NCBI RefSeq assembly: GCF_054482595.1
Contig: NZ_CM137008.1
Strand: one strand, 5' to 3'
DNA: 64,000 bases
Positions 534 through 29,886 of the stretch are shown piece after piece (the stretch's first letter is position 1; the number at the start of each line of letters is the position of its first letter). The position numbers and the translations under genes are program-made. The notes under the pieces were generated by a model. That model saw only the letters and a program-made list of their open reading frames with translations. It did not search any database and was not told where the DNA came from.

Positions 534-762
<229 letters not shown>

Positions 763-2676
763 TTACTTATGACCTGCCAGCAGTTCCAGCACTTCATCCA
801 CGCTGGTGGTGTGTGCCAGACGCTCGATGACGGACTCATCATCCAGTGCATTGGTCAGGCTGGTGATAACCTGAATGTGCTCGTTGTTACGGGCAGCAAT
901 ACCAATCACCAGACGGGCAATGTCATCTTCTTCTTCACCGAAGCGCACGCCTTCCGGGTACTGGCAGAACACCACGCCCGTTTTCAGTACGCGATCTTTC
1001 GCTTCAACCGTACCGTGTGGCACCGCGATAGACTCACCCAGATAAGTCGGGGTCAGTTTTTCACGATCCAGCATCGCCTGAACGTATTCCGGCTCAACGT
1101 AACCGCCTTTCACCAGCTGCTCGCCAGCAAAACGAATCGCTTCTTCTTTGGTGGCCGCTTTGCGACCGAGGAAGATGTTCTCCGCGCCCAGTTTGAACAG
1201 GTTAGCACTGGAATCGTCAAAGCTGTCTTTCAGACTGTCTTTCACTTTCACTTCGTTTTCAGTATGGCGCTGGGCAGCAACCAGACGTTCGGTCAGGCTG
1301 GTGTACAGGCCGCTGTCGAGGAAGTTGGTCAGCGAAATATGCTGTGCCTGCGGAACCTGGCGCATAGCGCGTTCGGTCAGGTCACGGTGAGTGATGACGA
1401 GGTCCACATCTGGCGGCAGGTTGTTGATCGCACTGTTAGTGACCGAAATCTGCGACAGACCTGCATCCTGAATTTTCTTACGCAGCACGCCTGCGCCCAT
1501 CGCACTTGAACCCATACCGGCGTCACAGGCAACGATGATTTTACGTACGTGGCTCAGGTCGTTAGTCACATCGCCCGCAGACAGCGGAGATGCACCTTTA
1601 GACTCAGCTTTCATGTCCTGCATACGACGAGTTGCTGCTTCAATATCATCTTCTTCTTTCACTTTGCTGGTTTTCAGCAAAATAGCAGAGACAACAAAGG
1701 AGACAGCCATCGCCGCACACACACCCGCGATGTTAGCGAAATAAGCACCTTTTGGTGTCATCGCCAGTACAGCAAGGATAGAACCCGGAGATGCCGGAGA
1801 AACCAGACCACCGCCCAGGATAGTCAGCGTGAACACGCCAGTCATACCGCCGAGGATAACGGCCAGGATCAGACGCGGATTCATCAACACATACGGGAAG
1901 TAAATTTCGTGGATACCACCCAGGAAGTGGATAATTGCCGCACCGCCCGCAGACTGTTTAGCGCTACCACGACCAAAGAACATGTACGCCAGCAGCACGC
2001 CCATACCCGGACCTGGGTTAGCTTCAATCAGGAAGAATATGGATTTACCCAGTTCATGGGACTGCTGAATACCCAGCGGCGAGAAGATACCGTGGTTAAT
2101 GGCGTTGTTGAGGAACAGGATTTTCGCCGGTTCAACAAAGATAGACGCCAGCGGCAGCATGTCATGGACAACCATGAAGTTAACGCCCGCAGCCAGCATT
2201 TTGGACAGGGCTTCAACAATCGGGCCAATGCCGAGAAATGCCAGAATGGCGAGGATCATCCCGATGATGCCTGCGGAGAAGTTATTCACCAGCATCTCAA
2301 AACCGGATTTGATCTTACCGTCTACCCAGCGGTCGAAGTGCTTAATGCACCAGCCGCCCAGCGGACCTGCAATCATAGAACCGAGGAACATCGGCATGTC
2401 TGCGCCGACGATAACGCCCATGGTGGTGATGGCACCGACTACGCCGCCACGTTCGCCGCCTACCAGCTTACCACCGGTATAACCGATCAGCAGCGGCAGG
2501 AGATAAGTGATCATCGGCCCGACCAGCTTCGCCAGCGTCTCGTTCGGTAACCACCCTGTTGGAATAAATAACGCGGTGATGATACCCCACGCGATAAACG
2601 CGCCGATATTTGGCATCACCATGTTGCTGAGGAAACGACCAAAGCTTTGCACTTTGATCTTAATATCGGATGACAT
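763..2676 (-). CDS. mtlA: PTS mannitol-specific EIICBA component
   Basis: 637-aa [35 protein letters not shown]..., membrane EIIC domain followed by EIIB/EIIA domains; synteny with mtlD. Confidence 0.95.
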
Positions 2677-2819
2677 AAAAACACCCCTTCTTATGTTTGC
2701 TGTCGCGCAGGCTGGAAGCCCGAGGTTTTTTGTTAATGTGGCGGCAGAGGTAGCCGGACCTTGTAGATACTGCGAAATCTGGCACTGAATCGGTTAACTG
2801 TCCAGTCGACGGCCTTTTG

Positions 2820-3040
2820 TGTGATATCAGTCACATAAATATAGGGGGTAGAGAGGTAATTGACGTGATACTCATCACAAAACGCTTGTGTAAAAAAGCA
2901 ACAAGACGGCGATTTTCGCTAAAAATGGCATTTAAATGTGAGTAGTGTCACATTTTTGTTTTGATGGTTTGTTGAATCTTTGTGATCTGAATCACAAGAT
3001 ATTTTCTTACGGCGTTCACCTGATGTGATCTACAGCATGT
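2820..3040 (-). promoter_or_regulatory. mtlA promoter region with an array of CRP-type sites
   Basis: Four perfect TGTGA-N6-TCACA palindromes at 2820-2835, 2864-2879, 2937-2952 and 2981-2996, plus a half-site near 3024, upstream of the mtlA start; consistent with the known multi-CRP-site mtl promoter. Confidence 0.7.
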
Positions 3041-3212
3041 TATGCCTTCGTCATACAATCGTTATGTAACTAAGCAACTCATCACCTCTAAAAATTATTC
3101 TTTGGTGTTATGGCGAGAATCGCGAACCCGGATTATTGTCAAAATATCAGCCTGACTCCCTTCTGGCTGCCAGCCCAAAAACAACACTGATAAACGTGAA
3201 TCCGAGGCAGAT

Positions 3213-3575
3213 ATGTTTCTAAACTATTTCGCGTTGGGAGTGCTGATCTTCGTCTTTCTGGTGATTTTTTATGGAATCATCGCGATACATGACATCCCTT
3301 ATCTGATTGCCAAAAAGCGCAATCACCCCCATGCCGACGCTATTCATACGGCGGGCTGGGTGAGCCTGTTTACTCTGCATGTTATCTGGCCGTTTCTGTG
3401 GATCTGGGCGACGCTCTATCAACCGGAGCGTGGCTGGGGTATGCAGTCACATGTTGCGTCGCAGGAGAAAGCAACTGACCCGGAAATCGCCTCACTTTCT
3501 GACCGAATTTCCCGGCTGGAGCATCAACTCGCCGCCGAGAAAAAGACTGACTATTCCACGTTCCCGGAGATCTAA
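3213..3575 (+). CDS. yibI: DUF3302-type small inner-membrane protein
   Basis: 120-aa ORF with an N-terminal hydrophobic segment and a C-terminal coiled-coil-like tail; paralogue of the yiaW-like ORF at 21791; immediately precedes the HlyD-like gene. Confidence 0.8.
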
Positions 3576-3577
3576 TT

Positions 3578-4714
3578 ATGGATCTATTGATTGTTTTAAC
3601 TTACGTGGCGCTGGCGTGGGCGGTCTTTAAAATCTTCCGCATTCCGGTAAATCAGTGGACGCTGGCGACGGCGGCGCTGGGAGGCGTGTTTCTGGTGAGT
3701 GGTTTGATTTTGTTGATGAACTACAACCACCCTTACACTTTTACCGCGCAAAAGGCAGTGATAGCGATCCCTATCACGCCACAGGTGACGGGAATTGTTA
3801 CTGAAGTCACTGACAAGAATAATCAGCTTATTCAAAAGGGCGAGGTGCTTTTTAAGCTCGACCCGGTTCGTTACCAGGCGCGAGTTGACAGACTTCAGGC
3901 TGACCTGATGACGGCGACGCATAATATAAAAACGCTGCGCGCCCAGCTCACTGAAGCGCAGGCCAACACCACCCAGGTTTCAGCGGAGCGCGACCGTCTG
4001 TTTAAAAATTATCAACGTTACCTGAAAGGCAGCCAGGCGGCGGTGAATCCGTTCTCGGAACGTGACATCGACGATGCGCGGCAAAATTTCCTCGCGCAGG
4101 ATGCGTTAGTGAAAGGCTCGGTGGCGGAGCAGGCGCAGATCCAGAGTCAGCTCGACAGTATGGTCAACGGCGAGCAATCGCAGATTGTGAGCTTAAGAGC
4201 GCAACTTACTGAAGCAAAATATAATCTTGAGCAGACTGTCATTCGCGCACCAAGCAATGGCTACGTCACTCAGGTACTGATCCGCCCAGGCACATACGCA
4301 GCTGCCTTGCCGTTGCGTCCGGTGATGGTTTTCATCCCCGAGCAAAAACGGCAAATTGTCGCCCAATTTCGGCAAAACTCGCTGTTACGTCTGAAACCTG
4401 GCGATGATGCGGAAGTGGTGTTTAACGCGCTACCTGGGCAGGTGTTCCACGGCAAACTGACCAGTATTTTACCTGTCGTGCCAGGCGGTTCTTATCAGGC
4501 GCAGGGGGTATTGCAATCATTAACGGTCGTGCCCGGCACGGACGGTGTGCTGGGAACCATTGAACTGGACCCTAACGATGATATCGATGCCTTACCCGAC
4601 GGCATTTACGCCCAGGTGGCAGTTTACTCCGACCATTTCAGCCATGTTTCGGTGATGCGAAAAGTGCTGCTAAGAATGACCAGCTGGATGCATTATCTTT
4701 ATTTGGATCATTGA
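3578..4714 (+). CDS. yibH: HlyD-family membrane-fusion-like protein
   Basis: 378-aa ORF with one N-terminal TM segment and long coiled-coil regions; SD ggaga before the ATG; paralogue of the yiaV-like ORF at 22120. Confidence 0.85.
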
Positions 4715-5173
4715 GGGGGAAGGGGGAGATTATGGAACTTTGCTCCCTGTAAGGACTAATTATTTTTGCATATTATTTCATCGGCTGTGATGATTTTTCG
4801 TTAATATCCATTATGTTAAGAAGTTCGGGATGAGTGTGAACTCATTGGATTTTTTATCCGTCTTGATCTGCCGAAGGATCAGACTATACATTGTCGAGAT
4901 CGCAATGATGATATGAGTTGTTCCTCCTGCGACGGCTCTAATCAAAAAAGAGCAGGAGTGCTTTTCCATCTATTGCGATGATGGCTTTATTATCTGAAGG
5001 ATGACAGTCACATTTAAAAAATATTTAATCTATAGATCACAATGTAGGGTCATGGAATATATGTATACAACTATTTTCTTCTTCACTTTTAATTATCGTG
5101 TTCATTATAAAACCAAGTTAAAAAAACTCCTGGAGAGTGACTTATTAATATATTTTTAAATAAAATTAAGTTA

Positions 5174-5695
5174 TTATTCATCGATGCATTTTATAGAATC
5201 ATCAATGGCCATAATAGTACTATTAACTCTCCACTTTATATTTTTATCATCACTACAAATATTAACTGAATTTATATCAATGATTTTTTTATTCTTATCT
5301 TTTGTTTTATTTACTGTTTCAATGCAATCAGCGGCAAGTTGGAGTGGATTTAGATTTTTCAGATATGGTCTTATGATCTTTCCCTTACTTAATAAATAGC
5401 ATGTATAGGATTCGGAAAGTCCAGCATCTATTTTGTACCTCATTATATTAGATAAGGATGTGAGAAATTCCTTGTTATCATTCGCAGCCATATATGCCAG
5501 TCCGAGTTCAGCCTCTGCGGCCTTACAGGCAAAATAGCTAAGTGAACACGCTTTTCGTCCCTCTTTAGTACTGGCTGATATTAGTGCCCATAATATTGCT
5601 TTGTCTGCCAAATCTAACTCTCTCTGAAATTGTCTTGCAGTAACTGCACTCGCAGAAATAGAGAAAAAAAATACAATTGTTAATAACTTTGCCAT
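5174..5695 (-). CDS. Putative secreted immunity protein for the adjacent orphan Rhs toxin tip (yibG-like by position)
   Basis: 173-aa ORF with a signal-peptide-like N-terminus (MAKLLTIVFFFSISASAVTA); AT-rich; directly downstream of the orphan Rhs C-terminal module. Confidence 0.55.
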   Translation of the reverse strand: MAKLLTIVFFFSISASAVTARQFQRELDLADKAILWALISASTKEGRKACSLSYFACKAAEAELGLAYMAANDNKEFLTSLSNIMRYKIDAGLSESYTCYLLSKGKIIRPYLKNLNPLQLAADCIETVNKTKDKNKKIIDINSVNICSDDKNIKWRVNSTIMAIDDSIKCIDE

Positions 5696-5700
5696 ATTTT

Positions 5701-6594
5701 TTAGTCCGTAACTGTTAATGTGCTATCTGGCTCTGAAAATATTAACTCATTTAATTTTTGCATGTCATTAGATGAACCAGTTATACAACCCTCGGAACAG
5801 AATCGAGGTCCTAAAGACGGACCGAAAGCGTTTAAACAACTATGTGTTAAAAATCCATCACGATTATATGTTTCTGTATTTGCTGACGGTACTAAACGTA
5901 TACCATTAGGTTTTCTATTGGTTGCTCCAGGACCATTAACATTCCAGCTCCATACCCCTTGAGGTATTGGACCTCTATTTTGTAAGTGTGTACAACCAGG
6001 ATTATTTTTACATTGCATATTATTACCATTATTACCAGAGGCGACAGGAATAGTAAGCACATCATAAGAGTTATCATCATTTTGCGTATCTGAAACGCAT
6101 GAAAGCATACTTAAAGTTATGCTGTATAAACAGGTCGCTAATCCCAACGGGTCAATATCAGTTATCGGATTCAACGGATACTGATAAAAATTCCATCCCC
6201 CTTTCAGCCCAATCGGATCCTGAGTGATATATCGCCCCTGCAGCGGGTCATAATAGCGGTGGCGGTTGTAATACAGGCCGGACTCCTCATCATACTGCTG
6301 CCCCGGCAGGCGGATAAGCTGCTGCAGCTGATGCGGGTTCTCTTCATTCAGCAGGTTGCCCCACTCATCGTATTCTGCGCACCATTCTGTAGCACCTTCC
6401 GTGCTGATAAGCGCCAGCGGCAGGCCGCGATGGTCGCAGTGGTACAGGTGGATTTTTCGCGCCGGCGTGTACACCGGGTCCATCTGGTTTTGCATCTGCG
6501 CCACCGTCAGGCCGCACGATGCCAGCCAGCGGCGGCTTTCCTCACTCACCCGGTCAGCCAGGATTTCACTTTCCAGCCGGTCGAGCATCTGCAC
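5701..6594 (-). CDS. Orphan Rhs C-terminal module: truncated core end (through DPxGL) plus variable toxin tip, no native start (yibJ-like by position)
   Basis: ORF contains ...[39 protein letters not shown] followed by a ~145-aa AT-rich tip; homology to the main rhs core stops abruptly near 6595. Confidence 0.75.
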
Positions 6595-6595
6595 C
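6165..6595 (-). repeat. Rhs 3' core repeat, copy 3 (partial)
   Basis: About 430 bp near-identical to 10330-10760 and 8462-8890 (e.g. ccaatcggatcctgagtgatata...gcgggtcataatagcggtggcggttgtaatacaggccggactcctcatcatactgctg). Confidence 0.9.
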
Positions 6596-6635
6596 GTGCC
6601 GGCGGGAATCCCCCACTGTGCATAGGCAACTCACG

Positions 6636-7478
6636 CTATGAACGCTTCAGCTTATCAATAGCGGAAGTTATAATTTCATTGTCATCAAACTTGTACAACA
6701 TAGTATCTAAAACAGGAAGTAGCGTTTTATCACCTAATTCACCCGCAGCTTCAATGATATCATCATAAACAGTATTTTTTTTTAACTCATCGCATAAAAC
6801 AGATAAAACCCTTTTATCTTTTCTGTAGGAAAGTCAGATTATTGCTTCAATACGGACTTCCTCATTTTTATCCTGAAGCATCTCCACAAAATAATCCCTA
6901 ATATCACTATTATCATATTTATTGATATTTATTGCAAATGCGGCCCAGTTTCTGACATCTCCATTTGGATCTTTTAACAGATTAATCAATAGTGGAATTG
7001 TTGCTTTATCATTGATAACAGAAATAGCAAATGCTGTAGCACGTCTGACATTAGTCGATTTATCAAAAGCAGTAATTTGAGATTGTTCTACTATTTTAGG
7101 TGAATAATTTGGGTTTTTCTTGCATCGCTGAGCCGTTGACTCGATTGCCGTAGCTCGAACGCAAGCGCTCTTATCATTCAATGCCATATTGTTCAAAATA
7201 TTAAAAACATTATCTTCGCATTTTTTGCAAATTTTTATTTGCCCGAGTATAAATGCTCCGATATCTCTACGGATATAATTTTTATCAGAGCAGAACTCAA
7301 TTGCCAATCTAACAGCGTCTTGCCCACCTCTTAACTGTAATACTCTGGCAGATGAAATCCTTTTCAAGGAATTGTGATCATCAAGTAAGCGAAATAATTC
7401 ATCATCATTTAGTTTCTTACATTGATTATATAAACCATACTCTTTACTTGCCTTTCTTTTCTGGTATGTATTTGACAT
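6636..7478 (-). pseudogene. yibA: HEAT-repeat protein YibA, interrupted by an in-frame TGA
   Basis: Translation from the MSNTYQKRKASKEYGLYNQCKK start reads to ...EVRIEAII then TGA (6834-6836); the same frame continues LSYRKDKRVLSVLCDELKKNTVYDD...DKLKRS to a TAG at 6636-6638. Confidence 0.7.
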
Positions 7479-7582
7479 TGCAGGAACCTCCACAAAGGCT
7501 ATCTTTTTTTATCGTTTGACTGTCTGGAGTCCTCCACCTACTCTGCCATCAGCGCACACGATGTTTGATTATCCTTACATAC

Positions 7583-7966
7583 TTATTTTCCGTGGCCAAA
7601 ATTCAGAATTCTCCCATCATTTTTGCCTATTTCTATAATAAAAACCCCACCAGCAATTTGGTCTGAGTGAATGGTACCTTCAACAACCCAACTTGTTGTT
7701 AACTCAGTGATTTCGTATGGTTTTTCTTCTTCTGCGGCATCCTGTCCATAACGATTCTTAACATATATCTCAGCTAATTCCAATGCTATAGCTTTATTTT
7801 TAACCAAATTTCTAACGGTATATTTACCTTCACTTTCATACTTGCGCATTATTTTAATATTATTATTACACTGCGCCCATGTGTTGTATGTAAAAACAAA
7901 CAAAGATACAATGACACATTTCCTAAACAATATTTTTTTACATATTACCATGAACTCTGCAGACAT
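7583..7966 (-). CDS. Putative immunity protein for orphan Rhs tip 1 (possibly a lipoprotein or secreted)
   Basis: 127-aa ORF, AT-rich, hydrophobic N-terminus ([24 protein letters not shown]); overlaps the 3' end of the orphan toxin ORF; true start may be the internal Met at 7951. Confidence 0.5.
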
Positions 7967-9407
7967 TAGGTAATCCTTTTCCGTTTGTTATTTCCTTCCC
8001 GTGGTTATCTATTGCTTTAAAATTACCACTGGGCGTACCTAAATAAAATGACTTGATATTGTTATCTTTACTTTTAACTATTTTCTCATCTTTACCTGAA
8101 AATATTTCGTCCCAATATTCTCCATGACTATCTGCACCATGAGTATGATAAGCTGATACTTTCTCAGTACCATTAGGGCAAGGGCTATTGAATGGATATG
8201 ATCCTTTTCTTTCTCCTCGGTTAGGTGCTGTTGAGAAATATCTGCCACTATTATCCTTACATATTAAACCAGCGAACTCTTTATCTTCGCAAATAGATTG
8301 GCTATTTATTTTATTTAAGGCGTCATATGCGGTGCTATCTATAGAATCAAATTTATCTGGACCTATCATAGCGGATAGTGTGCCGCAAAGACCATTAGTA
8401 CATGCCCCCGATTTTGCATCCTCCCACATAGATAAACCCAGGGGGTCGATGTCTGATATCGGATTCAATTGATATCCATACAGGTTCCATCCCCCCTTCA
8501 GCCCAATCGGATCCTGAGTGATATACCTCCCCTGCAGCGGGTCATAATAGCGGTGGCGGTTGTAATACAGGCCGGACTCCTCATCATACTGCTGACCCGG
8601 CAGGCGGATGAGCTGCTGCAGCTGGTGCGGGTTCTCTTCATTCAGCAGGTTGCCCCATTCATCGTATTCTGCGCACCATTCTGTAGCCCCTTCCGTGCTG
8701 ATAAGCGCCAGCGGCAGGCCGCGATGGTCGCAGTGGTACAGGTGGATTTTTCGCGCCGGCGTGTACACCGGGTCCATCTGGTTTTGCATCTGCTCCACCG
8801 TCAGGCCGCACGATGCCAGCCAGCGGCGGCTTTCCTCACTCACCCGGTCAGCCAGGATTTCACTTTCCAGCCGGTCGAGCATCTGCACCAGCACCGGCGG
8901 GAACACCACACTGCCACCGTCTTCGCCGCCGGACTGCTGAAGGGCATCCGCCAGGCTGCGGCGCTGCGTTTTCGCCAGCTCACCGGTGGCAGTTTCGACC
9001 CTGATGAGTGGCGTGAAGCTCCCCGGCTGATAAATCGTCTGGATGCGGCTCCTGTCGTTCTGTATCGTGGTCAGCCGGTCGCCGTCCCAGCCGTACCAGG
9101 TCACTTGCGGTTTCCGTGACAGCGACATCCAGCCCGTCAGGTCCCGTTCACGCCGCCACACCCGTTTTGCCACCCTGCGGCCCAGCGGGTCGTAAAGATA
9201 GCGACTTTCGACCAGCGGCTCTGCATATTGTGTCCGCGTGTAGTGCACCAGCCGGTGCTGACTGTCGTAATGGTACCGGTGGGTGCGCTCATCATCCGTG
9301 CGGATAACCCCTTCCGGGATGAGGTCGGTTTTCTCCGTCAGCCTGCCGTGACGGTCATACCGGTAAAGATAGTGCGCGTCACGGGCGATACGGTTATCCG
9401 GCCACAT
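7938..9407 (-). CDS. Orphan Rhs C-terminal module 1: about 1 kb of core 3' end plus a distinct ~175-aa toxin tip, no native start
   Basis: 489-aa ORF beginning inside core sequence ([18 protein letters not shown]...), includes [27 protein letters not shown] then an AT-rich tip; core homology to the main gene ends near 9480. Confidence 0.75.
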
Positions 9408-9480
9408 GCTGAGGGCGCTGTCCGGGTGCAGCTCCGGGTCGGGCAGGCGGTTACCTGCCGGGTCTGTGGCATACGGGATA
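8462..9480 (-). repeat. Rhs 3' core repeat, copy 2
   Basis: About 1 kb highly similar to 10330-11350 of the main rhs gene. Confidence 0.9.
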
Positions 9481-9524
9481 TCAATGCCCAGGTTACATAT
9501 AATAATAAGAGCAATTAACTTAAT

Positions 9525-9851
9525 TTATTTGTTTATAATGCGCTTACTTAATACAAACCATTGAATATACCCTCCTGACAGAAAATAAAGCCATATTATT
9601 ATCGCCATAATATACTTACTATCAATCCTTACGCCAATAATGTCTGATACAGTCCCTATAAATATTAGAGCAATAAAGAATACTATGCCTGTTGGAAAAC
9701 ATATTACCATCATTCCATAAGACATGAGACTAATTAACTCGCTCACATCACGAGTGGAGTCTAATAGTGAAAGTCTATGCATGGAAAAGAATAGTATTAA
9801 AAGCGATAAAGCCAGCCATATAGCTCTGAATAAAAAAATAATATATTTCAT
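9525..9851 (-). CDS. Putative RhsI immunity protein (small polytopic membrane protein) for the main Rhs tip
   Basis: 108-aa ORF with about three hydrophobic helices; start codon overlaps the rhs stop by 1 nt (TAATG); AT-rich. Confidence 0.6.
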   Translation of the reverse strand: MKYIIFLFRAIWLALSLLILFFSMHRLSLLDSTRDVSELISLMSYGMMVICFPTGIVFFIALIFIGTVSDIIGVRIDSKYIMAIIIWLYFLSGGYIQWFVLSKRIINK

Positions 9852-12800
9852 TACATCACTCCGGTGAATACAAATCTAATAAAACGTCCAATGTTATTTC
9901 CGGAGCACTTCATCTTACATGTTTCTAAAGAATCATTAGACCAGTCTTGGCAGTTTTTAAATAGCCCTAAATTTATAGGTGTGAATATATCAGGCAATAC
10001 AGAATAACGCGGCCTTACCTCTTTAAACTTCCCTTTTAAACAGTTCTCCACACAACTATTATCGGTTTCAACGAGGTCACAACGGCCAGCAGCTTCTTTT
10101 GTATCATTACTTGCTTTACCTGGCCCCCATAGACCATCTCCTTTTGATTCTCCCCGTTGGTCTTGGCCACCACAAGTATAGTCCCCTTTACCATCTGGGA
10201 CACAAAGATATTGATGATAGAACGGATTCCCCCATATATCTGGACCGCTTCTTTCACCAGTTCCGCCCATTGAATGCAGTGGCTTAATGCATTTTAGTGT
10301 TTCTAATCCTAATGGATCTATATTTGAGATCGGATTCAACGGATACTGATAAAAATTCCATCCCCCCTTCAGCCCAATCGGATCCTGAGTGATATACCGC
10401 CCCTGCAGCGGGTCATAATAGCGGTGGCGGTTGTAATACAGGCCGGACTCCTCATCATACTGCTGCCCCGGCAGCCGGATAAGCTGCTGCAGCTGATGCG
10501 GGTTCTCTTCATTCAGCAGGTTGCCCCATTCATCATATTCTGCGCACCACGCTGTTGCCCCTTCCGTGCTGATGAGCGCCAGCGGCAGGCCGCGATGGTC
10601 GCAGTGGTACAGGTGGATTTTTCGCGCCGGCGTGTACACCGGGTCCATCTGGTTTTGCATCTGCTCCACGGTCAGGCCGCACGATGCCAGCCAGCGGCGG
10701 CTTTCCTCACTCACCCGGTCAGCCAGGATTTCACTTTCCAGCCGGTCGAGCATCTGCACCAGCACCGGCGGGAACACCACACTGCCACCGTCTTCGCCGC
10801 CGGACTGCTGAAGCGCATCCGCCAGGCTGCGGCGCTGCGTTCTGGCCAGTTCACCGGTGGCAGTTTCAACTCTGATGAGTGGTGTGAAGCTCCCCGGCTG
10901 ATAAATCGTCTGGATGCGGCTCCTGTCGTTCTGTATCGTGGTCAGCCGGTCGCCGTCCCAGCCGTACCAGGTCACTTGCGGTTTCCGTGACAGCGACATC
11001 CAGCCCGTCAGGTCCCGTTCACGTCGCCATACCCGTTTTGCCACCCTGCGGCCCAGCGGGTCGTAAAGATAGCGACTTTCGACCAGCGGCTCTGCATATT
11101 GTGTCCGCGTGTAGTGCACCAGCCGGTGCTGACTGTCGTAATGGTACCGGTGGGTGCGCTCATCATCCGTACGGATACCCCCTTCCGGGATGAGGTCGGT
11201 TTTCTCCGTCAGCCTGCCGTAACGGTCATACCGGTAAAGATAGTGCGCGTCACGGGCGATACGGTTATCCGGCCACATGCTGAGGGTGCTGTCCGGGTGC
11301 AGCTCCGGGTCGGGCAGGCGGTTGCCCGCCGGGTCCGTGGCATACGGGATGCGGATATCCAGATTCGCTGCGGTGGTGTGAACGCCGGTCAGCCTGCCGG
11401 TGGTGCTGTAGCTGTAACTCCGGGTCTGGCGCGGGCTGCTGATGCGGATGAGTTCGCCGTTGTCGTTCCAGGTGTAATCGCGGTCATACTGCAGGCTGTT
11501 CAGGTGCTGACGCTGTAACTGCCCGGCAGGGGTGTAAGCGGTGGTGAGTTCATAACGACCGAAGCTGCGCAGCGTTTCCCGGTGCAGGCGGTCGCGGGTG
11601 AAATCCACCAGCGGTGTGTCGCCGAGCTTCATGCCTGCCAGCCAGCCGCTGCCGTAGGTCAGCCATTCCACGGCGGGCAGGCTGTCCGGTATACAGCGGT
11701 TCGCCAGTCCCTGCGCGTTGTACGCATGTCTGGTCTCATGCTGCCAGAGCAGTGCTTCCGTCTGCGGGTGATGCACCGTCTGGCGCTCACCGGTCAGGCG
11801 GCCTTTCTCATCATACCTGTAATGCACCGCTACCCGGTGCCCTTCGCTGATATGGCTGATGTCTGTCAGCCAGCCACGTTCGTCATACCGCCACCGCTCT
11901 GCGGTTTCACCCTTCACGGTGCGGTGCGTGAGGCGGTCTGCTTCGTCATAGTGCCAGTGGGTGACCAGACCCTCATCCTCGCTGCGGATAAGTTTGCCGG
12001 TCAGGTCGTGGTGATAACGCTGTGTGCGGCCGTCAAAGCCGGTTTCCTGTATCAGCCGGTCAAGTACATCGTAACGGAAGGTGGTGTGGCTGCCGTTTTC
12101 ACTGGTCAGGCGGATGACCCGTCCGGCAGCATCGTATTCCATACTGCGCGTCAGCCCGCCCTGCGTGGTACGGACGGCCTTTCCCCACGCATCGTACTGT
12201 GTCCCGTTTCTGCTGCCGTCCGGGGCAATGACGGCGGTCAGGTCACCGGCGATGTTGTATTCATACCGCGTTTCATGGCCCTGCGTGTCTTTCACGGCAA
12301 TTAACTGTCCACGGCTGTCGTATGCGCGGTACTGGCTCAGCCCTTCCTCGCGGTGCACCGCCGTCATCTGCCCGAAGCGGTCATGGTCATAACGGGTCTG
12401 GTAGCCGGAACAGTCGGTGAAGCTCAGCAACTGGCCGTAACGGCTCCACGTCATGGTTTTCCGGCTGCCGGTGGCATCGTCCGTTGCGCAGGGGAGGTCA
12501 CTGTGTGGATTATCATAACGGTAGCGGGTGATATCGCCGTCAGGGGCGGTTTCCTGAATCAGACGGCCGGATTCATCATATTCCCGGCGCAATTCCAGCC
12601 CGTCAGGCCCGGTGGCTGACGTTAACTGGTTGTGGTGGTTATAGTAAAACGCCGATGCCCTGCCATCCGGCGTGGTTATGCGCGTGATGAGGCCCGTCAC
12701 CACATCCGGGCTGTACTCTGTTGTCCTGCCTGCGGCATCCGTCTGTGCCCTGAGCCTGCCCACGGCGTCAAACTGACTCTGCGTGACGCTGCCGTCCGCG

Positions 12801-14035
12801 TGTTCCTTTTTCACCACCCGCTTCAGCCCGGCTTCGCCCTGCGTGTGCAGCACTTCACGGCGGTCCAGGCTGTCGGTGATGGTGATGCGGTCTTTCTCAT
12901 ACTGATACGTGTAGCTTAAGCCTGCCGGGTTTAGCTGTTCTGTCACCCGCCCGTCGCTGTCGTAACGGTAACGGATTTCCGGCCGGCCCGTGTGACGGTG
13001 CGCCACCATCCGGCCCCGGTATTTATCATCGTAAGTAAAGCTGCGCACCTGTGTATTGCTGCGGTCATACACTGCCGCCAGTTCGCCGCGCGGCGTCCAG
13101 CCATAGCGCACCAGCGGCGCGGCAGGTAAATTCTCCGGGTATTCCGGGTCGTGCGTCAGCCACACGGCAGACAGACGGATGCCGTTGTCCCGGCCATATT
13201 CGGTGTAACCCGGCAGGGTATCAGGAAAAGCGGACGGTTCCGTCCCGCCGGAAATGGCCTGCTGCCGGGCTTCTTCTGCCTGCTGCGCCTGCGTGGTCAG
13301 TACCAGCCGGAAGTGACGCCCGGCACCATCCGTCACGCCGGTGATTTCGCCGCTGAATTCACCGGCGGCTTCGCGGTGGAACGTCTGTGTGCGCCCGAAG
13401 CGGTCCACCAGCCCGGTCAGTACCCGGTACGGCGGCAGCGGCGCAGGCAGCACCTCATCCGCTTCCGGCACCCGCTCACACCACCACCACGGCCCCTGCG
13501 GACTGTTTGTCGCCAGATAACGATGCGGACTTAAGCGGAGTTCTTCCGGCAGCGCCTGCCAGAGTGCGGCCAGCCGGTGACCTTCATCCAGTTTCGCCAC
13601 GCCGCCGCGCACCAGCCACAGTGACTCGCTGCGGCTGTAACCGTCCTCACCGGGAAACAGGTGCTCAAAATACAGGCTTCTGCCGCCGTTATCACTGAGT
13701 ATCAGTGTGTTATCGCGCAGCTGTAAGCGGATATCCGCAGGCATTTTCCAGCCGGGGCCGAGGCTCCCCACCGGCGCGGGCGTTTTTGTCCGGTAACTGC
13801 TGTAGGTGCGGGAGAGGATGAACGGCAGCGGGGCGGGCAGGGCGATGTCGGTTTCACCGGGAAGGACCTTTGCACCGAGCAGGGGATTGACCGGATGGCC
13901 GGACGTCACTCCGCCGGGGCACCCCGAACAGGCCACACCGGTTGGGGCACCGATGCGCACCCCGGCTGAACCCTGAACAATGCTACCGCCATACTGCGTC
14001 ATGTCGCCCTGACGCGCCGCCGGTTTTCCGCTCAT
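9851..14035 (-). CDS. rhsA: Rhs-family polymorphic toxin with N-terminal PAAR-like domain, YD-repeat core and variable C-terminal tip
   Basis: 1394-aa ORF; N-terminus [42 protein letters not shown] (PAAR-like); many YD repeats; DPLGL hinge followed by a ~150-aa Cys-rich AT-rich tip; sits next to yibF as rhsA does in K-12. Confidence 0.9.
10330..11350 (-). repeat. Rhs 3' core repeat, copy 1 (within the main rhs gene)
   Basis: Source copy of the about 1-kb segment duplicated in the two orphan modules. Confidence 0.9.
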
Positions 14036-14969: not shown

Positions 14970-16361
14970 ATGACAACCGAAACGCGTTCCCTCTATAGTC
15001 AACTTCCGGCTATTGATCGCTTATTGCGCGATAGCTCCTTCCTTTCTTTGCGTGATACTTATGGTCACACCCGCGTGGTGGAATTGTTGCGTCAGATGCT
15101 TGACGAAGCGCGAGAAGTGATTCGTGACAGCCAGATGCTGCCCGCGTGGTGTGAAAACTGGGCGCAAGAAGTCGATGCCCGGTTGACGAAAGAGGCGCAG
15201 AGCGCGCTGCGTCCGGTGATCAACCTGACGGGAACCGTGCTGCATACCAATCTTGGGCGAGCTTTACAGGCGGAAGCTGCGGTGGAAGCCGTTGCGCAGG
15301 CTATGCGTTCGCCAGTGACCCTCGAGTACGATTTGGACGACGCCGGACGCGGACATCGCGATCGGGCGCTGGCGCAGCTGCTGTGCCGCATTACCGGCGC
15401 GGAAGATGCCTGTATCGTTAATAACAATGCGGCGGCGGTGTTATTGATGTTGGCGGCCACTGCCAGCGGGAAAGAGGTGGTGGTTTCTCGCGGCGAACTG
15501 GTGGAGATTGGCGGCGCGTTTCGTATTCCCGATGTTATGCGTCAGGCAGGCTGCACCCTACACGAAGTAGGGACCACCAACCGCACGCACGCGAATGATT
15601 ATCGTCAGGCGGTGAATGAAAATACCGCACTGTTGATGAAAGTACATACCAGTAACTACAGCATTCAGGGGTTCACCAAAGCGATAGACGAAGCTGAACT
15701 GGTGGCGCTCGGCAAAGAGCTGGATGTTCCCGTAGTGACTGATTTAGGCAGTGGCTCGCTGGTCGATCTTAGCCAGTACGGTTTGCCGAAAGAGCCAATG
15801 CCGCAGGAGTTGATTGCGGCGGGCGTCAGTCTGGTGAGTTTCTCCGGCGACAAGTTGTTAGGCGGGCCGCAGGCAGGAATTATCGTTGGTAAAAAAGAGA
15901 TGATCGCCCGCCTGCAAAGCCACCCGCTGAAACGTGCATTACGCGCGGATAAAATGACCCTCGCGGCGTTGGAAGCCACGTTGCGTCTTTATTTACACCC
16001 TGAAGCTCTGAGTGAAAAATTACCGACCCTGCGCCTGCTTACCCGCAGCGCAGAGGTCATTCAAATCCAGGCACAACGTTTACAGGCTCCCCTTGCCGCA
16101 CATTACGGCGCGGAGTTTGCGGTACAGGTTATGCCATGTCTTTCGCAGATTGGCAGTGGTTCGCTGCCGGTTGATCGCCTGCCGAGCGCGGCATTAACGT
16201 TTACACCCCATGATGGACGCGGTAGCCACCTTGAGTCATTAGCCGCCCGCTGGCGTGAATTGCCAGTGCCGGTGATTGGTCGTATTTATGACGGACGATT
16301 GTGGCTGGATTTACGCTGCCTTGAAGATGAGCAACGGTTTTTGGAGATGTTGTTGAAATGA
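14970..16361 (+). CDS. selA: L-seryl-tRNA(Sec) selenium transferase (selenocysteine synthase)
   Basis: 463-aa [24 protein letters not shown]...; stop overlaps the selB ATG (ATGA). Confidence 0.95.
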
Positions 16362-18202
16362 TTATTGCGACTGCCGGACACGTTGACCACGGCAAAACAA
16401 CCTTATTGCAGGCGATTACTGGCGTAAATGCCGATCGTCTGCCGGAAGAAAAAAAGCGCGGCATGACCATCGATCTCGGCTATGCCTACTGGCCGCAGCC
16501 GGATGGTCGTGTGCCTGGTTTTATCGACGTACCCGGTCATGAAAAGTTTCTTTCCAACATGCTGGCGGGCGTTGGTGGTATCGATCACGCGCTGTTGGTG
16601 GTGGCGTGCGATGACGGCGTGATGGCACAGACCCGTGAGCATCTGGCGATTTTGCAGCTGACCGGTAACCCGATGCTGACAGTGGCGCTGACCAAAGCCG
16701 ATCGCGTGGACGAAGCGCGTGTTAATGAGGTTGAACGCCAGGTAAAGGAGGTGCTGCAGGAATACGGTTTTGCTGAGGCAAAACTGTTTATCACCGCAGC
16801 AACCGAAGGTCGGGGAATTGATGCCCTGCGCGAGCATCTGCTTCAGTTACCAGAACGTGAACACGCCAGCCAACATAGTTTCCGCCTCGCGATCGACCGC
16901 GCATTTACCGTAAAAGGTGCCGGGCTGGTCGTCACCGGTACGGCGTTAAGCGGGGAAGTGAAGGTAGGCGATTCACTATGGCTGACTGGTGTAAATAAAC
17001 CGATGCGCGTGCGTGCGCTGCATGCGCAAAACCAGCCAACAGAAACCGCTCATGCCGGGCAGCGTATCGCGCTTAACATCGCGGGGGATGCGGAAAAAGA
17101 GCAGATTAACCGTGGCGACTGGCTGCTTGCCGATGTGCCGCCAGAGCCGTTCACGCGGGTGATTGTCGAGCTTCAAACCCATACGCCGCTGACCCAGTGG
17201 CAGCCGCTGCATATTCACCACGCCGCCAGCCACGTTACGGGACGCGTTTCGCTGCTGGAAGATAACCTTGCCGAGCTGGTGTTCGACACGCCGCTGCGGC
17301 TGGCGGATAACGATCGCTTAGTGTTGCGCGATATCTCGGCCCGCAATACGCTGGCGGGGGCGCGTGTGGTGATGCTTAACCCGCCGCGTCGCGGTAAACG
17401 TAAGCCGGAATATCTGCAATGGCTGGCGTCTCTTGCACGGGCGCAGAGCGATGCCGATGCGTTATCTGTTCATCTGGAACGCGGAGCGGTTAACCTTGCG
17501 GATTTCGCCTGGGCGCGCCAGCTCAACGGCGAAGGGATGCGCGAACTGCTGCAACAGCCGGGCTATATTCAGGCTGGTTATAGCTTGTTGAATGCGCCAG
17601 TTGCCGCCCGCTGGCAGCGGAAAATTCTTGACACATTAGCGACTTATCATGAGCAACATCGCGATGAACCTGGTCCTGGGCGCGAACGTCTGCGACGTAT
17701 GGCGTTGCCAATGGAAGATGAAGCGCTGGTACTGCTGCTGATTGAAAAAATGCGCGAAAGCGGCGACATCCACAGCCATCACGGCTGGCTGCATCTGCCA
17801 GATCACAAAGCGGGCTTCAGCGAAGAGCAGCAGGCCATCTGGCATAAAGCAGAGCCGCTGTTTGGTGACGAACCGTGGTGGGTGCGTGACCTGGCAAAAG
17901 AGACGGGAACCGACGAGCAGGCAATGCGTCTGACGCTACGCCAGGCGGCCCAACAGGGGATAATTACCGCGATCGTCAAAGATCGTTATTACCGTAACGA
18001 TCGGATTGTCGAGTTTGCCAATATGATCCGCGATCTCGATCAGGAATGTGGTTCAACCTGCGCGGCGGATTTCCGCGATCGCTTAGGGGTTGGGCGAAAA
18101 CTGGCGATTCAAATCCTGGAATATTTTGACCGCATTGGCTTTACGCGGCGTCGCGGAAATGATCATTTATTGCGCGACGCATTATTATTTCCGGAAAAAT
18201 AA
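16358..18202 (+). CDS. selB: Selenocysteine-specific translation elongation factor
   Basis: 614-aa [25 protein letters not shown]... (GTPase G1 motif), long C-terminal winged-helix extension. Confidence 0.95.
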
Positions 18203-25099: not shown

Positions 25100-25228
25100 T
25101 GGATGTCGGTGCGGCTGGCCTACGCTCTCGCACCGACTTGTATGCCTGATAAGACGTGTTAAGCGTCGCATCAGGCAATGTGCTCCTTACGTTGGATGCG
25201 GCGCGAGTGCCTTATCCAACCTACGGAT
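25100..25228. repeat. REP/BIME element at the yiaT-proximal boundary of the GH127 module
   Basis: gcctgataagacgtgttaagcgtcgcatcaggc and ggatgcggcgcgagtgccttatccaacctacgg; the last unit overlaps the GH127 stop codon. Confidence 0.75.
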
Positions 25229-27191
25229 GGCAATGCTTTTCCTCATTCACCCAGATCCGCATTTCGCCTTCACCCCGGTTGGCCCAGCTAAACCACGGGA
25301 TAAAGGTCAGAGTTTGCGTCTGGCGTTTGGCTGGCGCGCTGTCGTAATGCCACAGCGGTTGCTGCTCTGGATTGCTCTGTTCATACCGGTAACCCGGTGC
25401 CTGGATTAAGATCTTATGGCTAAACAATCCATTGCCTTCAAATGTCGTAAATGGCGCATCGGTGGGCAGCCACAGATTATGCAGTGACTCGCCGTTGTCG
25501 GCCTGTTCCAGGCAATACACCAGCGGGCCGCGCTGAATCGCCACTTTTCCGGCGACGTGACGCACCAGCGGGTTACCGTAAACGCGACGTACTGGCATCG
25601 GCAAAGTCAGATTCAGCGTGTCGCCCTCCTGCCATTCGCGGGTAATGTGCAAATACCCTTTACGAATATCCTGCTCGACCTCTTCCCCATTCAATATGAT
25701 CTGCGGCTGTGTGCACCAGTCCGGCAGACGTAAAGCAAGTGTATGACGCACCGGCTGGGGCGATTCGACCGCAATCGTCACCTGTTCCTGCCACGGATAG
25801 TTCCCGCTAACCCGCAGGCGCAGCGTGCCATTTTCTACCGGCACTTCCATGCTGTTTCCTGCGTATATGTTGATATACAACGCATCTTCTCGCGGCGTGT
25901 AGAGATAATGACCAATCGAGGTCAGCACGCGGGCGATATTTGGCGGACAACAAGCGCAGCCAAACCAACGCTGGCGGATCGGTTTAACGTGATCGTAGAT
26001 ATGGTTGAATTTCAGCGATTTTGGATGTACTTCCAGCGGATTCACATAGAAGAAATGTTTGCCATCCAGCGCCATGCCGCCGAGCACGGTGTTGTACAGT
26101 GCGCGCTCCATCACATCGGCATATTGACTGTCGCCTTCCATTTCCAGCATTCGTCGGGCAAACATCATCAGGCCGATGGAGGCGCAACTTTCAGCGTATA
26201 CCGTGTCATTCGGCAGATCGTAATCGCTGCTGAACGCTTCACCGCTGCTCTGTGAGCCAATGCCGCCGGTAATATATAACTGACGCTGGGCCATATTGTT
26301 CCACAGCCGCAGGCAGTTCTGACGCTTGCTGTCATCGTGACTTAAACGCGCGAGATGCGCGACGCCGGTCATCAGATAGACAAAACGTACCGCGTGACCG
26401 ATGGCGGTTTGCTGTTGCGCAAGGGGCAAATGTGCCTGGCTGTAGGCTTTGTCTTTCACCATCCACGCCGGGCCGTAGGTGTGCCAGTGCGATGTCTGCC
26501 CGCGCTTTTCATATTCCTGGTCGTAATAGTGCGGTTGCGCACCACGTTGTTCGACAAAATAGTTCGTCAGTGCCAGGTAGCGCGGCTCTTCGGTCACTTC
26601 ATACAGACGCATCAGTGCCAGTTCAATTTCCGGGTGACCAGGGTAACCGTGTAACTTACTTTCATCTGGACCAAACACGCTGTCGATATGATCGGCCAGA
26701 CGGCAAACCACTTCCAGCAAGCGCCGCTTGCCCGTGGCCTGGAAGAAGGCGACTCCAGCTTCAATCAGATGACCTGCGCAGTAAAGTTCATGACACTCCG
26801 CCAGATTGCTCCAGCGTTCTTCGGGTGCTTTTACCGTAAAGTAAGTATTGAGATAGCCGTCTTCGCATTGGGCGGAGGCGATCAGTTCGATTACCTCGTC
26901 GGCGGTTTTTTCCAGTTCGGCGTCTGGCTTCTGGCACAGCGACCAGGCTACCGCTTCCAGCCATTTGGCGACATCGCTGTCCTGAAACACCATCCCGTAA
27001 AATTCACCCTCCTGAAGTCCGGCGGCAATGCGAAAGTTTTCAATCGCATGGCTGGGTTCCGCTTCTGGTATACGATCGTTCAAGGCATCCCACTGATAAG
27101 GAATCACCACGTCGCGGACCAGTTGTTGGTACTGACCGAGAAACGGATCGCTGACCGTCAGTTTATGCAGATCGACTTCCGAAATGTTCAT
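25221..27191 (-). CDS. Glycoside hydrolase family 127-like protein (DUF1680; putative beta-L-arabinofuranosidase), cytoplasmic
   Basis: Start taken at MNISEVDL after SD aaggag (656 aa); contains YAESCASIG and WFGCACCPPN, matching the Glu-x-Cys and Cys-x-Cys-Cys zinc/nucleophile signature of GH127 enzymes; no signal peptide. Confidence 0.75.
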   Translation of the reverse strand: MNISEVDLHKLTVSDPFLGQYQQLVRDVVIPYQWDALNDRIPEAEPSHAIENFRIAAGLQEGEFYGMVFQDSDVAKWLEAVAWSLCQKPDAELEKTADEVIELIASAQCEDGYLNTYFTVKAPEERWSNLAECHELYCAGHLIEAGVAFFQATGKRRLLEVVCRLADHIDSVFGPDESKLHGYPGHPEIELALMRLYEVTEEPRYLALTNYFVEQRGAQPHYYDQEYEKRGQTSHWHTYGPAWMVKDKAYSQAHLPLAQQQTAIGHAVRFVYLMTGVAHLARLSHDDSKRQNCLRLWNNMAQRQLYITGGIGSQSSGEAFSSDYDLPNDTVYAESCASIGLMMFARRMLEMEGDSQYADVMERALYNTVLGGMALDGKHFFYVNPLEVHPKSLKFNHIYDHVKPIRQRWFGCACCPPNIARVLTSIGHYLYTPREDALYINIYAGNSMEVPVENGTLRLRVSGNYPWQEQVTIAVESPQPVRHTLALRLPDWCTQPQIILNGEEVEQDIRKGYLHITREWQEGDTLNLTLPMPVRRVYGNPLVRHVAGKVAIQRGPLVYCLEQADNGESLHNLWLPTDAPFTTFEGNGLFSHKILIQAPGYRYEQSNPEQQPLWHYDSAPAKRQTQTLTFIPWFSWANRGEGEMRIWVNEEKHCHP

Positions 27192-27201
27192 CTTGTGCTC
27201 C

Positions 27202-28602
27202 TTAAGGCTGTACATGACGCTGACGCAGGTCGGTAGCAATGCGTGACATCATAGGGTTATTGAGTTTGCAAAAGCGGATCGCCCCTGCCAGCAGCAGGTG
27301 GAATAGCGCAGGCAGTAATGTTTCCATCGCCGTGATCCCGCCAAGCGAACTGGTGGTCTGGTTTTCCACGCCTGGCTGGTAGGCGACAAAAATAAACAGC
27401 AGGCTGATGATCCCGGCGCTGGAGGCCCAGGCCAGCTTGATGAAAAACAGATTGAAGGCGAAGTTCATGCCGGAAGAACGTACGCGGGTTTTCCACTCGC
27501 CGTAGTCATCGGCAAAGGCCATCAATGAGAAGTGCAGTGGCAATGTGAAGCCAAGAATCACGCCATTACCGAGGATCACCGCCAGCCACAGCGTTTGATA
27601 AGCCGGGCCGGAGGGCAGGAACCACATCAACACCGCCAGTGCAGCGAGGAGCAGGTTGGTGTAGTAATAAATTTTGACGGTATCGAAACGCCGCGTTAAC
27701 GGGCTGACAATCACCGAGCCGATAATGGAGGCGAAGGTGACCATGGTGAAGAACAGCGACGTGTAGCCCGTGCTGCCTTGTAAGACGTAGGTAATGAAGT
27801 ACATATACCCACCGCCGCGAATATTAAAGACGTTAATCAGCAGGAAAGACATGACCAGCATCAGCAGCAGTTGGTCGTTGTTCCGCAGCCCGGCAAGATG
27901 TTCGCGCAGGGTAAATTTCCCCATTGTGGAGAGTGGCACCCGTTCACGAACCCAGAAAAAACAGCACAGGAACATCACCACGGCAATGGCGCACAGCACG
28001 CCGACGCCCAATTGATAGCCGCGCGCGGCATTACCCTGACCGAAGAGATCTACCATCCACGGTAAGCCTACCGAAACCAGAAATCCCGCTACGCCACAGA
28101 GAACGAATCGCCAGGACTGGCAGGAGATCACTTCATTGTGGCGGGTGGTCATGGTGTTGATCAGCGCGCAGTACGGTACGTTGATGGCGGTATAACCGAC
28201 TGAAAGGAGCAGGTAAGTACCGAACGCCCAGGCGATTTTTACTCCCATGCTGGCATCTGGCACGGTGAACGTCAGGATGCCGATAATGCCGATGGGAATG
28301 GCAATCCATAGCTGCCACGGACGAAAGCGCCCCCAGCGACTTTGCGTCCGGTCGGCAATGACGCCCATCACCGGGTCGGAGATGGCATCAAACACGCGCA
28401 GTGCAATAAACAGCGTGCCAACCAGCGCCGGAGTTAATCCAAAAACGTCGGTGTAGAAAAAGGTGAGAAAGTTCATGATCAGGCAAGTTATTACGGTGCC
28501 GCCTGCGTCACCCAGGCCGTAGCCTATTTTTTCCCGTACCGATAACGCATCGTCAATTTTACCTTTAGCGATATCAGCGGTAGTAATCGGTGTAGAGGTC
28601 AT
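27202..28602 (-). CDS. GPH-family glycoside/pentoside/hexuronide:cation symporter (MelB-like)
   Basis: 466-aa polytopic [38 protein letters not shown]...[13 protein letters not shown] (GPH signature region); SD gagga; stop lies 10 nt before the GH127 start, so operon-like. Confidence 0.8.
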
Positions 28603-28740
28603 AGATATTCCTCGTGAATAGGGAGCAATTTTTAGTTTTATTGAAATGACCTGATTAATTCTGCCGTGAACGGGAATATCAACAAGGCGAGAAAAGAGTA
28701 AAAAAAGGTGACGATTCCGACCTGAATTTAAAAGTGTGAA

Positions 28741-29643
28741 ATGGATCAGGTGAAATTAATGTTTTTTATTAATAATCAAAAGGTAATGTGTTTTGTCATT
28801 AATGAAGAAGCGGGAAATTACATATCAATGCTCGAATTATCCATGACGTTACCGATTAAAGTGCAAAATGGTGGATTATTTATTTCCCGTGGCGTAGGGA
28901 GGCATCCTGCAAGGCGGCTGGAGTCATGGGAAATTATCTTTGTCGAAAAAGGTCGATTAACGATTCAGGAAGAAGAACGGATATTTCTGGTCGATGCGGG
29001 AGAGAGTTTATTACTCTGGCCGAACCGACAACATGTTGGGGTGGAGGATTTTCCCGCCGATCTCAAATTTTACTGGCTGCATTTTGAGGTTAAAGCGCCG
29101 GACAACGACCCTCGCTGGCTTACTCATCTTAGCGTGCCGCAACAAACGAAGGTTGTCGATCCGCAGGCGCTGGTGGCCCTGTTTCGCCAGTTCTTAAGCG
29201 AACAGGAAAAGCATCAACGCACTCCGGCGCTGGAGTTTATTGTGCTGCTCATTTTGCAGCAGCTCACCCGTGACGCGCGTCTTGATGAACAGGCCGATGG
29301 CGCAGGCACCACCCTTGCCTGGAAAGCGCAGAAACTGATCCGCACGCAATATCATCGCCCGCTTTCTACGGTGCTTCTGGCCCGCGAGCTGTACTGCAAT
29401 GCCGATTATCTTGGGCGCGTCTACCGGCGGGTGTTTCATCTGACGTTAACAGAAGCAATCCATCGCCAGCGGGTGCGCGAAGCCGAAAAGCTGTTAATTA
29501 GCGAAGCGCGATCGCTCACGGAAGTGGCGGCGTTGTGCGGGTTTAATGACGTTGGCTATTTCCGGCAGATTTTTCGCAAACACACCGGTTTAACGCCAGC
29601 AGCGTGGAAGCGGCGTTACAGCAAGGAACATATCAATTCGTAG
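28741..29643 (+). CDS. AraC/XylS-family transcriptional regulator (N-terminal cupin-like sensing domain, C-terminal HTH)
   Basis: 300-aa ORF divergent from the transporter gene; C-terminal region with the typical AraC HTH; start codon uncertain (ATG 28741 or a downstream Met near 28819). Confidence 0.75.
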
Positions 29644-29886
29644 TGCCGTGTCGATTTCGCTTTCGACATCACGTCTGAAACAGGTGGGGGAGAAAAATCT
29701 CCTGAAACCACTGCGTGAAACCGCGCAGGCTATTTCTAATGAACTGGGATTTACTGTCAGGGATGACCTTGGCGCGATCACATAACGCTTTGGACAAGTG
29801 CCAAAACTTTAACATTTCCTTCGTTGGATCAAAGCAGTAGGGACGTGCTCTCTGGCACTCTGCTGTTTTAGTGCAAAGGAGTGATC

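Follow-up and report, generated by a model that had tools for sequence, protein, structure and literature searches.

A clone-wide premature stop codon in yibA, an Rhs immunity gene without its toxin, in Escherichia coli

Introduction

The 64,000-nt stretch of Escherichia coli DNA analysed here (contig NZ_CM137008.1 of RefSeq assembly GCF_054482595.1; hereafter the window) contains the HEAT-repeat gene yibA, the reading frame of which is split by an in-frame TGA codon. Such a codon may be an error, a recoded codon or a genuine lesion, and in the last case the questions are whether the gene has lost its function and why the loss is tolerated. A first-pass annotation made from the sequence alone had offered a nonsense pseudogene and a read error as the possible readings, and had proposed an alignment with K-12 yibA and a search for the same stop in other isolates. 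It left unremarked the context of the gene, which is that of an Rhs immunity gene whose toxin is gone.

In K-12, yibA begins 20 nt after the rhsA stop codon, and the last 132 residues of K-12 RhsA, following the DPxGL motif, constitute the Pfam family Ntox34. [quoted passage not shown] Ntox34 has also been listed with Imm-HEAT as its immunity partner (Zhang et al. 2012, PMC3482391). Based on this literature on the K-12 protein, K-12 YibA is a HEAT-repeat immunity protein against the Ntox34 tip of RhsA. In addition, a K-12 screen found that nalidixic acid, UV, peroxide and SDS killed yibA::Tn5 mutants more readily (PMC2824699). The "yibA" of another paper (PMC12945103) is a misprint for YbiA and irrelevant here.

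Reading frame of yibA and comparison with K-12

The yibA region of the window comprises the following features.

7478-6636, minus strand: yibA pseudogene, 280 codons plus terminal TAG, broken at codon 215; 99.6% identity to K-12 yibA
6834-7478, minus strand: remaining open frame, 214 codons plus stop, still matching HEAT_2 and HEAT
6834-6836, minus strand: premature opal TGA at codon 215 (GGA in K-12; G643T, Gly215 to stop), followed by C to give UGAC
6636-6833, minus strand: untranslated 3' part of yibA, 65 codons plus TAG, with no in-frame start before codon 260
6783-6791, minus strand: A9 homopolymer in the untranslated 3' part (gene positions 688-696), the site of an A9 to A8 frameshift elsewhere

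Direct translation from the ATG at 7478-7476 gives 214 sense codons ending in EVRIEAII before the TGA at 6836-6834. Past this codon the same frame runs for 65 codons (LSYRKDKRVLSVLCDELKKNTVYDD...DKLKRS) to the TAG at 6638-6636, which agrees in every coordinate with the split frame described in the first-pass annotation. The minus-strand sequence, the ORF list and the translation are concordant in giving yibA a length of 281 codons including the terminal stop. An in-frame GTG lies 15 nt upstream of the ATG (7479-7493, minus strand) and leads to a 219-aa product from some gene callers; two protein sequences, of 214 and 219 aa, are thus on record for one broken yibA, depending on the start called.

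Alignment with yibA of the K-12 derivative ER1709 revealed GGA at codon 215, so that the window codon differs by the single transversion G643T. The only further coding differences are I124N (ATT to AAT) and C196Y (TGT to TAT), and no synonymous difference was found over the 843 nt aligned. Orthology is indicated by both sequence (99.6% identity over 843 nt) and synteny, the gene being located between yibF/selA and yibH/mtlA. The chain deposited as PDB 1OYZ ("hypothetical protein yibA") has 280 aa with Gly215 and aligns end to end with repaired YibA, i.e. the 280-aa protein obtained by replacing the premature stop with Gly. The length of 280 aa and the Gly residue given for K-12 YibA in the first-pass annotation are thereby both confirmed. 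Repaired YibA matches HEAT_2 (1.7e-27) and HEAT (5.5e-17) in Pfam and, being nearly identical to 1OYZ, has the all-alpha HEAT-repeat character of Imm-HEAT proteins. The window gene and K-12 yibA (b3594; PDB 1OYZ) are therefore alike in locus, length and frame, with 99.6% coding identity; however, K-12 yibA has GGA at codon 215 and follows an Ntox34-tipped rhsA, whereas the window gene has TGA and its toxin tip is deleted. As far as the alignments go, chance is of no concern for a stop that lies one base away from 99.6%-identical orthologues.

Distribution and single origin of the TGA allele

The two alleles were searched for with 55-nt queries centred on the site, such that every 28-nt megablast seed word had to contain the variant base. 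The T allele was found in 20 of 5,426 complete E. coli genomes and the G allele in 2,932, which gives the T allele a share of 20 in about 2,950 yibA-bearing complete genomes. The 20 carriers were assembled independently and come from humans, pigs, chickens/poultry, a duck, river water and waste in several countries, so the question of whether other isolates share the stop can be answered affirmatively. The exact 214-aa product is encoded on 189 contigs and its GTG-start version of 219 aa on 130; the former was also located in 329 index blocks of the public collection (NCBI, ENA and Logan sources) and has been deposited as APY02162.1, BBW68688.1, BCG29891.1 and BCG34959.1. Gene order was identical at all 10 inspected places with the 214-aa product.

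That the T is an error of sequencing or assembly, yibA being intact, is extremely improbable. An error could indeed yield a difference of one base; however, the identical base recurs in 20 complete genomes that differ in laboratory, host and country of origin, the truncated product is present throughout the index blocks mentioned above, further substitutions are found on the TGA haplotype, and the change is a substitution, not a homopolymer miscount. Judged from these records, sequencing error is excluded for practical purposes. Of the two readings offered at first, the nonsense pseudogene stands, the allele being clone-wide and annotated in RefSeq as an "internal stop", and the read error does not.

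In a 2.8-kb alignment extending from yhhH to the Imm57 gene, C48 and T2663 are common to the GGA relatives and two TGA haplotypes (L012 and L018), and A48 and C2663 are found in the window and eight other TGA haplotypes; later substitutions have built up on the TGA background. This nesting of SNPs indicates a single origin of the TGA codon followed by clonal descent. An exact protein look-up for G215* on the K-12 allele background gave no entry on record. The intact ancestor allele, N124/Y196/G215, is rare (10-18 contigs), and at one of its loci (L009) ybfB and yhhH lie upstream of the intact yibA as they do in the window. E. coli XH990 (NZ_CP019359.1) agrees at every base with two intervals of the window, 1-32000 and 636-13478, and in that strain RefSeq/PGAP labels yibA a pseudogene with an "internal stop". 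The comparisons indicate that the yibA stop is a real, vertically inherited nonsense mutation of one E. coli clone, and its pseudogene status is already known, since the public annotation of XH990 in RefSeq records it.

The rhs locus around yibA

The genes and fragments flanking yibA at this locus are as follows.

5174-5695, minus strand: Imm57 immunity gene (PF15596, 1.3e-47), partner of the downstream orphan fragment
5701-6606, minus strand: orphan rhs C-terminal fragment with a Tlde1-like tip (PF03527, 2.5e-15; PF10908, 3.5e-07), downstream of yibA
7499-7530, minus strand: rhsA 3'-end remnant, 32 nt including the TAG at 7501-7499; sole leftover of the cognate Ntox34 toxin gene
7583-7966, minus strand: yhhH, Imm-NTF2-2 immunity gene (PF15631, 2.5e-26), directly upstream of yibA
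7938-9494, minus strand: orphan rhsB-type C-terminal fragment with a DUF4329 toxin tip (PF14220, 6.7e-39), without N-terminus
9525-9851, minus strand: ybfB, downstream of the main rhs gene at the same locus
9851-14035, minus strand: main rhs gene, RhsC-type tip; lies in the yibF-yibH interval, the chromosomal position of rhsA

Read along the minus strand, the order is main rhs and ybfB, orphan rhsB tip and yhhH, yibA, and finally the Tlde1-like tip and Imm57. Homology to the K-12 rhsA-yibA region starts only at 7530, 52 nt before the yibA ATG. A position directly downstream of the cognate toxin tip, as seen in K-12 and 1,756 genomes, is thus not the one that yibA occupies in the window.

Within the fragment downstream of yibA, PGAP marks only 6139-6606 (minus strand) as a partial RHS pseudogene, and a GTG-start ORF extends to 5701. 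This ORF, 5701-6606, contains an RHS core motif and a Tlde1-like domain and stops 6 nt short of the Imm57 gene; together the two appear to form a complete-looking orphan toxin-tip/immunity module. The clone is still reshuffling in this fragment, as shown by two TGA carriers with changes in the rhs core fragment that map to about 6155-6500 of the window. One of them (L020) has about ten substitutions in 140 nt (alignment columns 1466-1603), resembling gene conversion from another rhs copy, and the other (L018) has a clean 96-bp in-frame deletion (columns 1717-1812).

The placement of yibA as a displaced immunity gene downstream of a main rhs gene is that of the orphan modules described for Rhs/CDI systems, where, as shown by Poole et al. 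(2011, PMC3150448), an orphan immunity gene can be expressed and confer protection. However, typical orphans of these systems keep a toxin-tip fragment with the immunity gene, whereas yibA of the window has none apart from the 32-nt remnant and is itself broken. A promoter/terminator scan returned sites that were not above those in shuffled sequences and none upstream of yibA, and is uninformative on expression. Elsewhere in the window, the interval 25221-29785 between yiaT and ysaA contains genes for a glycoside hydrolase (GH127), an MFS transporter and an AraC regulator, and after them 141 nt left over from the C-terminal part of an IclR regulator; this variable region, which presumably stands in place of the K-12 yiaJ and yiaK-sgbE operon, is unrelated to the yibA stop.

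Absence of Ntox34 from the TGA genomes

Ntox34-coding DNA was detected in 1,792 complete E. coli genomes. The Ntox34 DNA was then joined to a TGA-specific 55-mer as one query; since GGA genomes matched this query too, the band of at least 99% identity was used. Within this band the number of records rose from 1,791 with Ntox34 alone to 1,811 with the joined query. As exactly 20 extra records match the TGA segment only, all 20 TGA genomes are without detectable Ntox34 DNA, and we conclude, by arithmetic on record counts rather than genome-by-genome reading, that Ntox34 is absent from all of them. About 1,186 genomes have yibA without Ntox34; the stop is present in only 20 of these, and GGA is kept in 1,166.

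Other broken copies of yibA

The yhhH-to-yibA junction occurs in 2,974 of the 5,426 complete genomes and is therefore old and widespread. It is also found at the rhsB locus of K-12 ER1709 (L004, 5153-5503), where a second yibA follows rhsB and yhhH with the same junction as in the window. This rhsB-linked copy has a TAA at codon 82 and several substitutions, and is cut at codon 117 by ISEc1 (yhhI).

A third lesion, seen in DSM 103246 and its relatives, affects the A9 homopolymer. The yibA of DSM 103246, which belongs to the N124/Y196 allele, keeps GGA and has lost one A from this run, and PGAP describes it as "frameshifted". The frameshift falls at codons 230-232 and yields a 247-aa product lacking the last 49 residues. 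This product is on record on both allele backgrounds (127 and 476 contigs); the A8 allele was counted by exact protein look-ups, the low-complexity filter of BLAST being one that would probably mask the A-run. Of the eight A8 copies inspected, five have no toxin and are linked to yhhH; a truncated rhs precedes the sixth, and the remaining two are directly preceded by an apparently intact RhsA of 1,377 aa with Ntox34. The A8 copies beside intact RhsA could be homopolymer miscalls, or the C-terminal 49 residues could be dispensable, or self-immunity could be unneeded.

The A8 alleles and the K-12 rhsB-linked yibA' resemble the window gene in having the yhhH-to-yibA junction, in being mostly toxin-less and in encoding a truncated HEAT product. 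The lesions themselves are independent: a frameshift in the A8 alleles, a TAA and an ISEc1 cut in K-12 yibA', and the TGA at codon 215 in the window. Unlike the toxin-less yibA of the window, some A8 copies adjoin an intact Ntox34 rhsA. On the evidence of their sequences, toxin-less copies of yibA decay independently, by differing lesions.

Residual function, recoding and selection

It is unlikely that yibA is still functional in the clone, either through a 214-residue protein that binds its partner or protects from stress, or through readthrough of UGA-C by tRNA-Trp, giving some full-length protein with Trp215. The truncated product does keep significant HEAT_2 and HEAT matches, disruption of yibA in K-12 has the stress phenotypes described above, and A8 copies without the last 49 residues are occasionally found beside an intact Ntox34 RhsA. 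The 65 codons downstream of the stop are also undamaged; however, the stop is a derived state restricted to one lineage, and its recent origin accounts for the intact downstream frame, which is thus no evidence of constraint. A single-sequence AlphaFold model of YibA, of low confidence (pLDDT 59.7) and used for helix boundaries only, puts the stop close to where a predicted helix (206-217) ends, and the four predicted helices across 222-279 beyond it. Losing about four terminal helices usually destabilises a helical-repeat solenoid, and would probably do so here if this low-confidence model is followed.

As for readthrough, UGA followed by C is said to be the weakest (leakiest) termination signal in E. 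coli, reportedly after work by Poole, Brown and Tate in 1995. Typical UGA readthrough in E. coli does not exceed a few per cent. Neither a fold test nor an Rfam search found a structure or signal that would promote recoding, and the conservation of both stop and downstream frame across lineages that goes with programmed readthrough is not seen, the stop occurring in one clone only (20 of about 2,950 genomes). That a leaky UGA-C or a stable 214-residue fragment supplies enough YibA against RhsA-armed rivals or stress, which would make the allele down-tuned rather than null, is likewise unlikely.

A reading of the TGA as a selenocysteine codon is vanishingly improbable. The in-frame UGA and the nearby selA and selB (14970-18202, 8-11 kb off) are its only support. 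On the other side, 2,932 genomes encode Gly (GGA) at codon 215 and no homologue has Cys or Sec there, and the synteny selA-selB-yibF-rhs is unchanged in K-12, which has GGA. The 70 nt from the UGA onwards, tested for a SECIS stem-loop, are no more stably folded than shuffled sequences (-10.1 kcal/mol, z = -0.9), and an Rfam search including SECIS over 6400-7700 gave no meaningful match (lowest E-value 1.4, every match far short of its gathering score). The proximity of selAB to the premature UGA is thus a coincidence, and selenocysteine or any other recoding signal was rejected. A downstream restart producing a separate C-terminal protein was also rejected as unlikely: the first in-frame ATG/TTG codons are codons 260-261, and no ribosome-binding motif of the GGAGG/AGGAG type is present in the 20 nt upstream of each.

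Positive selection for the loss of yibA, with a resulting advantage explaining why the stop allele outnumbers its intact ancestor, is very unlikely. The truncated products are indeed found on 189 and 130 contigs versus 10-18 for the intact N124/Y196 allele, and all three differences from K-12 alter the protein, none being synonymous. However, hitch-hiking in a successful clone accounts equally well for the excess, a dN/dS test needs far more than three substitutions, and most toxin-less yibA genes (1,166 of 1,186) have GGA at codon 215. We know of no cost of YibA expression.

Probable decay of an orphan immunity gene

We consider it probable, at about 85%, that the inherited nonsense mutation G643T makes yibA a clone-specific pseudogene, i.e. 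an orphan immunity gene decaying under relaxed selection. Recombination in the rhs locus, a "rearrangement hot spot", would have removed the Ntox34 tip. With no Ntox34 near yibA or elsewhere in these genomes, YibA would not be needed against self or sibling intoxication, and the gene could be selected for only as a defence against foreign E. coli armed with RhsA. Weakly constrained, yibA would have drifted, with two replacements (I124N and C196Y) followed by the G-to-T transversion. The resulting stop ends translation at residue 214 and takes away the last 66 residues, about four predicted solenoid helices.

Toxin loss is the likely reason why the stop is tolerated, relaxed selection is the best reading of its cause, and the decay is most likely neutral or nearly neutral. 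From the missing 66 of 280 residues we infer that the truncated product has lost its immunity function; its retention of 214 of the 280 residues and of a HEAT match counts against full loss. As only 20 of the 1,186 genomes with toxin-less yibA have this stop, orphan status alone does not drive rapid decay, and orphan yibA copies may be under some selection, as Poole et al. (PMC3150448) proposed for orphan immunity genes.

Conclusions

The yibA of this clone deserves the pseudogene label it has in RefSeq, and not that of the 214-aa "lyase" or "hypothetical protein" of some GenBank entries. Beyond correct annotation the stop itself matters little, apart from the TGA allele being handy as a one-base marker of one E. 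coli clone. What is added here is the context, that of a toxin-less Rhs immunity gene alongside independently broken copies. The yibA of the window clearly illustrates, in a form that can be dated, how an Rhs immunity gene decays once recombination has removed its partner toxin, and the independent lesions of other copies without the toxin are relevant to the question of whether orphan immunity genes are really kept by bacteria for protection. The three independent lesions in toxin-less yibA could serve as a natural series for the rate at which orphan immunity genes decay after toxin loss.
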